64,000 bases of DNA, taken from contig OY970065.1 of assembly GCA_963705295.1 (NCBI GenBank), positions 1,504,001 through 1,568,000 of the forward strand, given 5' to 3'. A program made the position numbers and the translations under genes. Below, piece by piece: positions 9,200 to 16,557 of this stretch (the stretch's first letter is position 1; each line of letters opens with the position of its first letter). This stretch comes from Parachlamydiales bacterium (GTDB lineage: Bacteria > Chlamydiota > Chlamydiia > Chlamydiales > Rhabdochlamydiaceae). Under the pieces are notes generated by a model. The model was given only the letters and a program-made list of their open reading frames with translations. It ran no database searches and was not told where the DNA came from.

Positions 9200-9311
9200 A
9201 TAAAAACATGATTCGTAAGATATGCTTGATACGCGAGATAAAAAATTCTCGGTGTCTTAATTCACATCATGCATATCATGCGTATCCTATTGATCATGTA
9301 ATTTTGTCTCT
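9200..9311. repeat. left 112-bp inverted repeat of the xfp-ackA cassette; internally palindromic
   Basis: 103/112 identical to the reverse complement of 16446..16557; internal 33-bp arms at 9207-9239 and 9266-9298 with GAT every 9 nt. Confidence 0.95.
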
Positions 9312-10299
9312 ATTGATTGAGCAGTAAAACAGCGGAGCCTTCGAGTGTTCCCTCTCGAATGGCGGACAATGCTTGGTTGGCTTTTTCGAGTGGAAATGGG
9401 GTTGCTGAGACTTTTAGGGGAATTTTTTCTGCAAGCCGCATAAATTCGAGGCCGTCTTGCCTTGTTAGGTTGGCGACGGAGGAGATCGACCGCTCTTCCC
9501 AAAGAAGTGCGTAAGGGAAGGACGGAATATCGGTCATGTGAATTCCGGCGCTGATCACCTTGCCTCCTTTTTTAACCGTTTTGAGTGCTTGGGGGAAAAG
9601 AGCGCCGACCGGTGCAAAGATGATGGCTCCGTCTAAAGAAATCGGCGGCACTTGATCCGATCCTCCGGCCCATCTGGCTCCAAGAGAACGGGCAAAGGCT
9701 TGTTTTTTTTCATCGCCAGGCCTGGTGAAAACATACACATCCTGGCCCAGTGCTACAGCTATTTGAATCAATAAATGAGCCGATGAACCAAAGCCGTAAA
9801 AACCGATGGTTTTAGTCGGTTGTAACAGCCGAAAAGCACGGTAGCCTATAAGGCCCGCGCACAGAAGAGGTGCCGCCTGAAGGTCTGTGTAGCGGCTTGG
9901 CAGTCTCAATATAAAGTCTTCGTGGGCCGTACAAAACTCCGCATACCCGCCATTTTTCGTATAACCGGTAAAAACGGGATGGTCGCAGAGATTTTCCCGC
10001 TCCGAGTTGCAAAACTCGCAGGCTTGGCAGCTTTTTCCTAGCCATGGCACTCCTACCCGATCTCCGACTTTGTACCGAGTTACCTTTTCTCCCATTTTTT
10101 CGATCATGCCGACGATCTGATGCCCTAAAATGAGAGGTAATTGAGGAGTAGGCAGCTCTCCATCGACAATGTGAAGATCGGTACGGCACACTCCGCAAGC
10201 CCGAATTTTGATCAACACCTCAAAGGGTCCGGGATTGGGACGTGGAACCTCTCTTAAAACAAGCGGCTGCCCCATCTTCTCAAGAACCATTGCTCGCAT
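9310..10299 (-). CDS. zinc-dependent alcohol dehydrogenase family protein
   Basis: CGVCRTDLH, GHQIVG, CQACEFC...ENLC, APLLCAGLIGYR, YGFGSSA. Confidence 0.93.
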   Translation of the reverse strand: MRAMVLEKMGQPLVLREVPRPNPGPFEVLIKIRACGVCRTDLHIVDGELPTPQLPLILGHQIVGMIEKMGEKVTRYKVGDRVGVPWLGKSCQACEFCNSERENLCDHPVFTGYTKNGGYAEFCTAHEDFILRLPSRYTDLQAAPLLCAGLIGYRAFRLLQPTKTIGFYGFGSSAHLLIQIAVALGQDVYVFTRPGDEKKQAFARSLGARWAGGSDQVPPISLDGAIIFAPVGALFPQALKTVKKGGKVISAGIHMTDIPSFPYALLWEERSISSVANLTRQDGLEFMRLAEKIPLKVSATPFPLEKANQALSAIREGTLEGSAVLLLNQ

Positions 10300-12700
10300 T
10301 ATTTGCCCCCCATCGATAAAGCAAAATTTTAACCCTATCTAGAATAAACATCCAGGCAAGGGTGTATACCCAAATTAACCCGATATACGACCATGGAATT
10401 GCAGTCATAACGACCCCTAAACCGACAAACAAGGCTGCAATCAATTGCGTGGATAAAATGGCGCCAATTAAAATAGGGGCCGGATAAGGTTTAGAAAAAA
10501 AAGCATTTTTTGTTCGGGCAATAAATAAGGTTTGGTGGCCAGCTAGGGATAGTTTCAGAAATATGAACGATTGTATCTGCGGGATACTCAAATTGAGAAG
10601 ATCTTTACCGAAGATCAGGAGGATAAATGATGAGAGAATGCCAACACCTCCCAGCCCGCTTGCAATCGTAAGAACCTGTCTCATCTGCCATTGAACAGGC
10701 TGTTTCTCCACCAGAGTATGGTCATAGGCTATTGCTAGAATTGGAATATCGTTGAACAGGGCAAGCAAGATGATCATGAGAGCGGTGACGGGATAGAAAT
10801 TGAAGATGAGGATGGAAGCGACCATAAAGAGCATCACACGTATCGTCTCGGCGATCCGATAAATCGCGTAGCTATTCATCCTTTCGAAGATACACCGGGC
10901 TTCTTCAATGGCCCTGATAATGACGGAAAGACCAGAAGCTGTTAAGACCAAAGAGGCCGATGCCCGGGCAGCATCTGTAGACCCGTCGACAGCAATTCCT
11001 ACATCGGCTTGCTTTAATGCTGGAGAATCATTCACCCCATCCCCTGTCATCCCGACAATGTGTTTTCGACTTTGAAGAGTTTTGACAATCTCGTATTTTT
11101 GCTCTGGAATAATTTGAGCAAACCCATCACTTTTTTCTATCTTCTCGGCAATTTCAGGTGTCTCCATAATGACGATGTTATCCCCAATTTTCAGCTGCCG
11201 GGCGATTTCTTTTGCAATCGCAATATTGTCTCCTGTAAGCATCTTTATTTTGATCCCGTGCTCCTGTGCATGACGGATGGTCTCGATCGAATCTTCTCTC
11301 AGAGGGTCAAATAAAGGTAAGAGACCGAGAAATTCCCAGCTTTTTCCATCTTTACTCCGAGCTACTCCCAGCGCACGATTCCCTATTTGTGCGAAATGAT
11401 CGATCGCTTTATCGATCTCTTGTTCAACCGAAGGTTGTAGATTGCAAAGAGCTGCAATCACCTGCGGTGCCCCCTTGGTGACATAGATAACATTTCCTTG
11501 AGGATCCCGTACCATCGCATCGGCCTGTTTCCTTATAGGATCGAATGGGATGAATTTCTCTAAAATGTAACCGTTCAATATTTCTCGATTTTTAACTCCC
11601 TTAAGAATTGCTAGATCAATCGGGTCTTGAGTTTCTGCTTGTGAAGTTAAAGCGGCATGAAAAATGACGGTTTGTTCATCAACGGCCCCGAAAACAACGG
11701 GGGTTCCCATCGTTAATTGATTTTGCGTGAGGGTTCCTGTCTTATCGCAACAAAGAATATCGATACCTGCCATCTCTTCTATAGATTCCAATCTTGTTAC
11801 AACAGCTTTCATCCTTGAGAGTCTCAAAGCACCCAGCGCCATCGTGACAGAGAGTACTGCTGGCATCGCGACAGGAATGGATGCAATCACAAGAATAAGG
11901 ACAAATTGAACGAGCTCTAAAAAAGGGGTACCCCGTATCAGCTGGGTGACAACCAGAATACATGCCAAAGCTAAACTCAAATAAATCAGATAATCGCCAA
12001 TCTGAAGAACAGCTTTTTGAAAATGAGAGACAGGTTTTGCTTTCTCGACCAGCTGGGTTGTTTTTCCAAAAAAAGTATTTTGACCCGTTGATATGACAAG
12101 GCCGGTCATTTCCCCTTGTTTCGCAATAGATCCTGAGAAAACGACTTCATCTATTTTCTTTGTCACAGGAAGAGATTCACCTGTCAATGTTGACTGGTCG
12201 ACTGTCAAATAATCCCCTTCTACGAGCTTCGCATCAGCAGGAATGATGTTCCCAAGTCTTATTCGAATCAAATCTCCTGGAACTAGCTCTGCCGCATCGA
12301 TCTCTAACCATTTACCATCCCGTTTCACAAGAGATTTAGGAGCCAGGTTTTTCTTCAGTGCTTTAATCGCATTCCCCGCTTGAAACTCTTCCCAAAAGTC
12401 AACAAGCCCATTCACAATGAGTAAAATCAAAATGATAATAAAGTCTGCAAAATGCCGAACAACAACAGATAAAATGGCAGCAATTTCGATCATCCAAGGG
12501 ATAGGACCCCAAAAATAAGCCAGAAATTTCCGAAAAATCGATTCCCTTTTCTCTTCAATGGTATTTCGGCCGCACTTTTGGAGACGGCCTTTCACCTCGG
12601 CATCATTGAGTCCCTCTTTAGTACTTTTAAGCAGGGCAAATAACTGATCGGATGTCTTTTGTTTAGCCTCCTCGGCACTGACAAAGCATCTATCGATCAC
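10280..12700 (-). CDS. plasma-membrane proton-efflux P-type ATPase (type IIIA)
   Basis: FWGPIPWMIE, LTGES, IPVAMPAVLSVTMA, DKTGTLT, KGAPQ, GMTGDGVND, FERMNSYAIYRI, NDIPILAIAYD. Confidence 0.93.
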   Translation of the reverse strand: MIDRCFVSAEEAKQKTSDQLFALLKSTKEGLNDAEVKGRLQKCGRNTIEEKRESIFRKFLAYFWGPIPWMIEIAAILSVVVRHFADFIIILILLIVNGLVDFWEEFQAGNAIKALKKNLAPKSLVKRDGKWLEIDAAELVPGDLIRIRLGNIIPADAKLVEGDYLTVDQSTLTGESLPVTKKIDEVVFSGSIAKQGEMTGLVISTGQNTFFGKTTQLVEKAKPVSHFQKAVLQIGDYLIYLSLALACILVVTQLIRGTPFLELVQFVLILVIASIPVAMPAVLSVTMALGALRLSRMKAVVTRLESIEEMAGIDILCCDKTGTLTQNQLTMGTPVVFGAVDEQTVIFHAALTSQAETQDPIDLAILKGVKNREILNGYILEKFIPFDPIRKQADAMVRDPQGNVIYVTKGAPQVIAALCNLQPSVEQEIDKAIDHFAQIGNRALGVARSKDGKSWEFLGLLPLFDPLREDSIETIRHAQEHGIKIKMLTGDNIAIAKEIARQLKIGDNIVIMETPEIAEKIEKSDGFAQIIPEQKYEIVKTLQSRKHIVGMTGDGVNDSPALKQADVGIAVDGSTDAARASASLVLTASGLSVIIRAIEEARCIFERMNSYAIYRIAETIRVMLFMVASILIFNFYPVTALMIILLALFNDIPILAIAYDHTLVEKQPVQWQMRQVLTIASGLGGVGILSSFILLIFGKDLLNLSIPQIQSFIFLKLSLAGHQTLFIARTKNAFFSKPYPAPILIGAILSTQLIAALFVGLGVVMTAIPWSYIGLIWVYTLAWMFILDRVKILLYRWGANNASNGS

Positions 12701-16249: not shown

Positions 16250-16398
16250 AATCCCCCCCTTTCATTTATTATTAACTTTCGGATGAATTTTAATTCACAG
16301 CTTGTCAGCAGGGTTGGCTTATGAATAAGTTTTATGGGAAAACCAAATCCCATAAAGACTAATGTTTTGCTTTTGTTATCAGTTTTCTTCTTTTTCAT
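16234..16398 (-). pseudogene. internally deleted remnant of an HTH (MqsA-like) antitoxin gene
   Basis: KTLVFMGFGFPIKLI joined to HKPTLLTSCELKFIRK; from recall these resemble two non-adjacent segments of chlamydial HTH antitoxin-like proteins; not searched. Confidence 0.4.
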
Positions 16399-16445
16399 TG
16401 CTGTTCTCTTGTTACTTTCATAGCGGCAATAAAGCTTTTGATGCA

Positions 16446-16557
16446 AGAGACAAAATTACATGATCAATGGGATACGCCTGATATGCATGATGTGAAATAA
16501 GACACCGAGAATTTTTTATCATGCATATCAAGCATATCCCATGAATCATGTTTTTAT
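16446..16557. repeat. right 112-bp inverted repeat of the xfp-ackA cassette; internally palindromic
   Basis: Inverted counterpart of 9200..9311; its own 33-bp arms pair at 29/33. Confidence 0.95.

Follow-up and report, generated by a model that had tools for sequence, protein, structure and literature searches.

The window analysed here is a 64-kb stretch of a Rhabdochlamydiaceae genome in which a four-gene metabolic operon is bracketed by two inverted 112-bp repeats. Each 112-mer is, judging by the sequence comparisons below, very probably a non-autonomous, internally deleted copy of a small selfish element, in which a GxxExxY nuclease gene is flanked by two inverted arms, each made of four 9-bp units. 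Arm A lies on the 3' side of the gene and arm B on its 5' side. The genome (G000) consists of 2.13 Mb in one contig; coordinates are positions in the window unless prefixed with C1 or given in k, which denote the genome contig. The features of the locus are the following.

8437..9162, plus strand: pgl (6-phosphogluconolactonase), the conserved left neighbour (TIGR01198)
9154..9196, plus strand: truncated arm from a second dispersed repeat family (TATTAAC), to which the left copy is fused; blastn finds 20 more matches elsewhere in the genome
9200..9311, minus strand: left copy, a gene-less GxxExxY element; arm A at 9207-9239 points outward, arm B at 9266-9298 toward adh
9310..10299, minus strand: zinc-binding alcohol dehydrogenase family protein (adh; TIGR02822, 318 bits, cut-off 283.5)
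10280..12700, minus strand: plasma-membrane-type proton-efflux P-type ATPase (TIGR01647, 939 bits)
12690..13883, minus strand: acetate kinase (ackA; TIGR00016)
13880..16249, minus strand: phosphoketolase (xfp; NF003619)
16234..16398, minus strand: MqsA-like helix-turn-helix antitoxin remnant, internally deleted; its alignment to the antitoxin partner of a DUF4258 toxin falls into two blocks
16420..16445, plus strand: B-side flank of the element, on the right copy only, inside the pair
16446..16557, plus strand: right copy, a gene-less GxxExxY element; arm B at 16459-16491 points toward xfp, arm A at 16518-16550 toward tsaD
16656..17672, plus strand: tsaD, the conserved right neighbour (TIGR03723)

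The two repeats are inverted copies that differ at 9 of 112 positions, and their identity ends sharply on either side of both. Pairing between the arms reaches 24 of 33 positions in the left copy and 29 of 33 in the right, around a 26-bp spacer in each. In all four strands of the pair the fold is better than in each of 200 shuffles, with z from -2.6 to -8.9. An arm matrix trained on the pair's arms and on other copies in the genome scores 55-66 bits on the pair's arms, whereas two shuffled genomes reach no more than 9; this matrix detects CATGAT-type arms only, and variant words escape it. No Rfam family matches either 112-bp copy. The adh stop codon (9310-9312) shares 2 bp with the left copy, and no target duplication is present in the 20 bp outside the pair, the only pair examined in this way; the longest word common to the two outer flanks has 4 bases and lies away from the junctions. 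The copy length, mismatches, arm pairing, spacers and stop-codon overlap all recompute to the values given in the first-pass annotation, and its description of an enclosed four-gene operon with an antitoxin remnant is borne out by family profiles and by the two-block antitoxin alignment, as is its statement that target duplication is absent.

The element itself exceeds 112 bp, a point absent from the first-pass annotation, as is the TATTAAC arm beside the left copy. The further 26 bp of flank beside the right copy is common to the copies at C1:387.9k and 726.4k and, in part, to those at 813.6k and 1214.1k. The right copy keeps this B-side flank whole and has lost the A side. The left copy retains 4-5 bases of the A-side flank (9196-9199) and has lost the B side, where it is fused to the adh stop codon; both outer flanks of the pair are truncated. 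On its outer side the left copy adjoins the TATTAAC arm at 9154-9196. The TATTAAC family is a palindromic repeat of 160-200 bp with ~74 loci in the genome, including 19265-19476, 43210-43382, 59574-60126 and 61211-61385 in the window, and it also adjoins the element copy at C1:726k.

The 112-mer belongs to a family with ~13 dispersed loci in the genome, most of which have no nearby partner. Eight are two-armed copies with spacers of ~20 to ~200 bp, and about five are partial or back-to-back loci; by the open reading frame listing, the copies sit between genes. Element flanks of ~30 bp on the B side and ~80 bp on the A side are common among copies and variably truncated, so that the ends beyond the arms are ragged. 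The arm pattern is absent from all 18 congeners and present in 7 of 128 other genomes of the family, with 63, 28 and 12 matches in three of them and one each in four. Such patchy counts point to lineage-specific bursts of spread. Across 185,579 species genomes, exact matches to the arm pattern occur at 42 loci, mostly in genomes titled Chlamydiae or unnamed bacteria.

GxxExxY genes can be flanked by 9-bp-periodic inverted arms, an association that was tested here. Periodic arms accompany all three GxxExxY genes of this genome, on at least one side of each. A Simkaniaceae locus (L153) carries a complete GxxExxY gene (TIGR04256, 132 bits) between converging arms of the same word as the pair's, and at three other loci (L121, L125 and L127) the gene between such arms has lost its middle; these four come from 72 loci searched. 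From L153 the deletion series runs through L121/L125/L127 to the copy at 203k, then to those at 726k and 388k, and finally to the copy at 1214k and the left and right copies of the pair. Several details tie the two ends of the series together. The pair's B arm is in frame with the N-terminus of the L153 protein, which the translation of the right copy's arm B resembles, and copies in the genome with longer spacers retain further codons up to a conserved His. The pair's spacers keep the first codons of the gene, and the opposite spacer end matches its last bases. Outer flanks match L153 at 17 of 21 (inner B-flank bases) and 29 of 38 positions.

Inverted arms beat 100 shuffles at 27 of 36 GxxExxY loci with enough flank, a set from which one short-flank locus and duplicates were removed. 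In a tree of 34 GxxExxY proteins, from which the arm-encoded start was removed, proteins with GAT-word arms form one clade with 100/100 support. This clade holds all 15 rows labelled with the word and one that the labelling missed; six other rows are unlabelled. An intact 129-codon GxxExxY gene at C1:498.6k belongs to the same clade. That kin share arm labels indicates joint transmission of gene and arms; it does not demonstrate recognition of the arms by the protein. The predicted fold of the local GxxExxY protein has a predicted local distance difference test (pLDDT) score of 88.7, and its top matches are generic PD-(D/E)XK nucleases, among them Cas4 SSO0001 and AdnA (Z 7.9) as well as Hjc; as all matches have Z <8, only the superfamily is indicated. 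Neither the protein nor its alignment has a sequence match among solved structures, and viral contigs, queried with the L153 protein alone, contain no relative of it.

At L052 (C1:1327240-1327449), a GxxExxY gene has lost its second half between intact CACAGAG-type arms, which in this other arm family marks an intermediate on the way to an empty hairpin. At 34536-34645 the window contains a second 9-bp-periodic hairpin, with a CACCGAG word; arms of this kind surround the GxxExxY gene at C1:1224.8k, and the hairpin is their empty form.

The row for the GxxExxY family in one published account gives its function as unknown, records multiple horizontal transfers and carries no mention of flanking repeats (PMC3424549). 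A literature search that covered few subscription journals yielded no description of repeat-bounded elements that carry GxxExxY genes. What is new is a chlamydial 9-bp family with a deletion series, an intron at an arm position (see below) and a sister pair around acquired genes. GxxExxY proteins constitute a very common family without known function, and gene, arms and empty copies are now tied together through the deletion series and the correspondence of arm words with protein clades. The 112-bp hairpin is a concrete test substrate, and an intact cognate enzyme is encoded in the same genome.

Those MITEs (miniature inverted-repeat transposable elements) that derive from insertion sequences constitute internal-deletion series of autonomous elements that keep their ends and are amplified in single lineages. 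The 112-mers resemble them as internal-deletion derivatives with retained ends. However, the autonomous gene here is TIGR04256, with PD-(D/E)XK top folds instead of a DDE/DEDD transposase, the ends beyond the arms are ragged, and target duplication is absent around the pair. The autonomous form encodes exactly the family catalogued as PDDEXK_3/GxxExxY (PF13366, TIGR04256).

A second comparison is with REPINs, described as non-autonomous extragenic inverted doublets with a spacer that form a hairpin and are presumably served in trans by a rare, repeat-flanked REP-associated tyrosine transposase (RAYT; PMC3116915). The likeness covers several points: the two inverted arms and spacer of the pair form a single-strand hairpin, non-autonomous extragenic doublets are dispersed here too, the presumed enzyme in trans comes from a rare gene with the same repeats on its sides, and, as far as the REPIN account goes, repeat type is tied to enzyme type in both. 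There are also three differences: 1) the flanked gene encodes a PD-(D/E)XK nuclease, not a HUH/Y1 tyrosine transposase, 2) the arms are 9-bp tandem arrays, the 5' one translated as a protein N-terminus, and 3) the empty copies are deletion products of a gene-bearing element. A direct RAYT link was rejected, as no copy lies closer than ~95 kb to the genome's one broken Y1 fragment (C1:631.5k), and the flanked gene is GxxExxY. Tandem intergenic words have been reported as TAACTGA repeats in Beggiatoaceae (PMC4679880) and GGGAATC repeats in Xanthomonas (PMC4692102). These share with the present family a patchy, lineage-specific distribution between genes, often in about four units and near gene ends, whereas they are mainly direct repeats to which regulatory or G-quadruplex roles are assigned, with no link to a nuclease gene in the portions cited here.

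All four metabolic genes score above curated family cut-offs. The best relatives of adh are 73-76% identical and come from other families; the ATPase has no orthologue in the 18 congeners, three of which have paralogues at only 32-37% identity; of the 18 congeners one has xfp, as do 41 of 128 family genomes. Within 12 kb of pgl, tsaD follows at 12 of 16 congener loci, with varied genes between; terC occupies 8 of these 12 intervals, and toxin-antitoxin pairs are sometimes present. The operon is at pgl in none of 16 congener loci and none of 35 metagenome loci, while terC and its 232-aa neighbour gene were not found in this genome. Among 16 xfp loci of relatives, ackA is adjacent in 15, the ATPase in six and adh in none, and no case of adh beside xfp-ackA-ATPase occurs in these loci or in 11 adh loci. 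The operon is a lineage-specific gain at the pgl-tsaD site, and the flanking synteny of pgl...tsaD-lolE-lolD-ugd is intact. The antitoxin remnant alone has no Pfam or NCBIfam match; its intact relatives are the DUF4258 pairs of genome G014 and of this genome, and the 24 bases upstream of it may be the tip of the toxin partner.

How did two copies come to enclose this operon? The reading favoured overall, with a probability of roughly 0.55, is that they are gene-less element copies generated in one local event, with the operon as a bystander and not the cargo of a dedicated cassette system. More specifically, we would give even odds to one local duplication of a full-flanked copy accompanied by inversion of the intervening DNA. 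A lone copy bearing both flanks would have stood beside pgl, at a hotspot holding a toxin-antitoxin pair and the xfp-ackA-ATPase-adh operon. A GxxExxY nuclease acting in trans, its activity presumed, would cut arms extruded as a hairpin, and host repair would then copy the element with ragged flanks. The copy would have been duplicated in inverted orientation to the far end of the operon, and the DNA between would have been inverted simultaneously, or later when the two copies recombined, so that each retained one flank.

Several observations are consistent with this sequence of events. Left and right copies differ from each other at 9 of 112 positions and from six other copies at 13-30, and two private columns are common to the pair. 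For a given pair, random placement within 7.3 kb occurs in 0.6% of cases; the observed separation is 7.2 kb. The two are closest mutual copies, although tree support is incomplete, and stand in inverted orientation, as in replicative inversion. The flanks are divided between them, with B on the right copy (inside) and a few A bases on the left (outside), as would follow from duplication of one full-flanked copy with inversion, or from a local hop and subsequent recombination. The pre-inversion order would place the toxin-antitoxin remnant just after pgl, in agreement with G014, where pgl is followed by a related toxin-antitoxin pair read in the same direction as pgl. An inverted duplication around inverted DNA is described as the signature of intramolecular replicative transposition (PMC4471558). 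Within these data, the sister pair around acquired genes is the best hint of element-driven rearrangement.

A number of observations weigh against the favoured reading. The closest pgl relatives are 72-74% identical, and neither the 18 congeners nor the 35 metagenome loci yielded an un-inverted or empty-site relative. Other copies commonly lack the flank on one side (26k, 203k and 726k), so the division of flanks may be chance, and the 4-5 bases of A-flank on the left copy score at background. For an inverted target duplication there are only 0-2 bases of possible overlap. In the eight-copy tree, left and right are not exclusive; the decayed 203k copy nests among them (support 42/91). The supporting toxin-antitoxin order occurs in 1 of 12 congener loci, at ~40% identity. 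Close inverted pairs in genome G117 enclose DNA that is collinear with this genome, without net inversion. When 8-13 copies are placed at random, some pair, as distinct from the given one, lies within 7.3 kb in 16-38% of cases. Finally, both the nuclease activity and its role in mobility are predictions from sequence. Two further lines were uninformative: the strand bias of cargo codons has too wide a spread to record an inversion, and a hypothetical pre-inversion end of adh would move its stop one codon later, within the range over which homologues end.

The alternative that fares best, though clearly the less probable, is that two repeats were inserted separately into the gaps beside the operon without any rearrangement, their likeness reflecting a master copy or gene conversion. 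Since the operon has no internal gaps, any two nearby insertions would bracket it exactly, and the chance of proximity for any pair is the 16-38% given above. Genome G481 has an 8.1-kb inverted pair of the same geometry around housekeeping genes of the hemL/nfeD type, although with differing spacers, and a G117 pair surrounds a ComEC-like core gene; moreover, a third copy (1214k) has the identical 26-bp spacer. Against separate insertions, the two most similar copies are the neighbours, the flanks are divided as a single event predicts, and both junctions cut incoming genes, at the adh stop and upstream of the antitoxin remnant. The first-pass annotation had offered two independent insertions of a dispersed repeat as its alternative. 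The dispersed repeat is confirmed by the ~13 mostly single loci, but independent insertion does not account best for two sister copies separated by 7.2 kb around a lineage-specific operon.

More speculative, and in our view doubtful, is the proposal that GxxExxY elements form a transposase-free class of mobile elements, in which the nuclease acts in trans to cut neighbouring empty copies, acting as pairs, and host repair leads to inversion, duplication or carriage of the intervening genes. The operon might then be captured or flipped metabolic cargo, a suggestion as tentative as the class itself, and other chlamydial inverted pairs and tandem amplifications could, with the same reservation, be traces of the same chemistry. 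If the pair is the scar of copying and inversion, genome rearrangement is an effect of such elements, which could also carry metabolic genes about in transposase-poor intracellular bacteria. If the arrangement is due to chance, it adds a further example of a dispersed repeat, belonging even so to an element class for which no literature description was found.

It is unlikely that the copies served as the ends of a composite mobile unit that brought the operon in, or can remove it, replacing terC and its neighbour with GxxExxY acting in trans. The gain of the operon here (its absence from the congener and metagenome pgl loci), the missing terC and 232-aa gene, and the lineage-specific arrival of both repeats and operon would all suit such a unit, as would a full GAT-clade element 4.5 kb from ackA in G092. 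However, G092 has no second copy across xfp, and none of 57 partly overlapping cargo-homologue loci (526 kb) has CATGAT-type arms, even in G097 with its 63 arm matches elsewhere. The outer ends are truncated, target duplication is absent, and no donor cassette is seen, adh never standing beside xfp-ackA-ATPase in the loci above. Composite transposons and the insertion sequence IS26, as far as the published description goes, likewise place near-identical inverted copies around host genes without direct target duplication (PMC4471558); here, neither copy has a transposase, there is no inverted 8-bp target match, and no second case with the same cargo was found. The cassette-type unit suggested by the first-pass annotation accordingly finds no support, given the unbracketed cargo loci, the ragged ends, the lack of target duplication and the other pairs that enclose core genes. 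Its idea of cis sites served in trans is plausible, with the GxxExxY nuclease as candidate enzyme, but a dedicated cassette system is unsupported. Of the observations it had named as telling against a cassette, most copies are indeed unpaired, whereas the operon is not syntenic in repeat-free relatives.

An integron cassette was also rejected, the extra tyrosine recombinase scoring 61 bits on TIGR02249 (cut-off 265) in a search that left out attC core motifs. Links to IS110 and resolvase genes fail on their distance from the copies; other transposase families of the genome lay outside this search.

It is very unlikely that active flipping of the segment serves as an on-off switch for the operon. 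The inverted 112-bp repeats, 92% identical, could recombine, and a flipped operon would presumably read from pgl's direction. However, no invertase lies near, and the recombinase and transposase genes found are all at least 21 kb from any copy (resolvase-family gene at 557k, broken IS110 at 1793k, broken Y1 fragment at 631k, tyrosine recombinases at 115k, 887k and 1193k); the nine accumulated mismatches would also be unlike maintained invertase sites. An assembly artefact around the repeat, conceivable in a single-contig assembly, is extremely improbable, as the two copies differ from each other at 9 positions and from every other copy, 112 bp is shorter than any read, and the flanking synteny is intact.

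Other forms of the repeat occur in this genome and in others. Back-to-back arms 25-75 bp apart are present at C1:1614236-1614346, 1649326-1649466, 2065547-2065664, 498.4k and 1225.2k, as a permuted circular form, or tandem insertion beside a resident copy, would be expected to produce. Tandem duplications that contain a repeat copy, with units of 527-585 bp and one of ~2.4 kb, are found at L137/L143, G482:C1:348.9-350.1k, L151 and L157; the one at L151 adjoins an assembly gap. A group II intron (RF02005) with a broken reverse transcriptase frame interrupts the identical arm position at C1:813709-815602 (L009) and at L215/L220 in G097, which suggests, from its recurrence in two genomes, that hairpin arms may be a homing target.

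Two patterns in copy orientation and base composition do not carry over to other genomes. Among the 30 copies in G117, all 9 neighbours with facing A sides lie within 1.8-29.3 kb, compared with 25-186 kb for the opposite geometry (P 0.011 and 0.0001 by two statistics picked after seeing the data). This clustering does not recur in G481 (23 copies, P 0.85); in G117 its geometry is the reverse of that of the pair here, and the interiors are core genes collinear with this genome. In G000, GC skew shifts from C-rich to G-rich across the repeats at 16 of 16 sites (mean 0.19 vs 0.05 for gaps generally, P 5e-5); the flip is absent at 33 loci of other genomes (0.02 vs 0.005, P 0.19) and was set aside as a mechanistic clue. 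The adjacent pgl is extremely C-rich at fourfold sites.

The ATPase is of fungal/plant type and is linked with phosphoketolase and acetate kinase in a chlamydia, the three-gene link recurring at 6 of the 16 family xfp loci, which suggests an acid-export or low-oxygen energy module. At 19580-20623 on the minus strand, a 347-aa open reading frame without an NCBIfam match displays, by eye, a RING-like Cys/His pattern in its C-terminal half, possibly a eukaryote-like ubiquitin-ligase domain.

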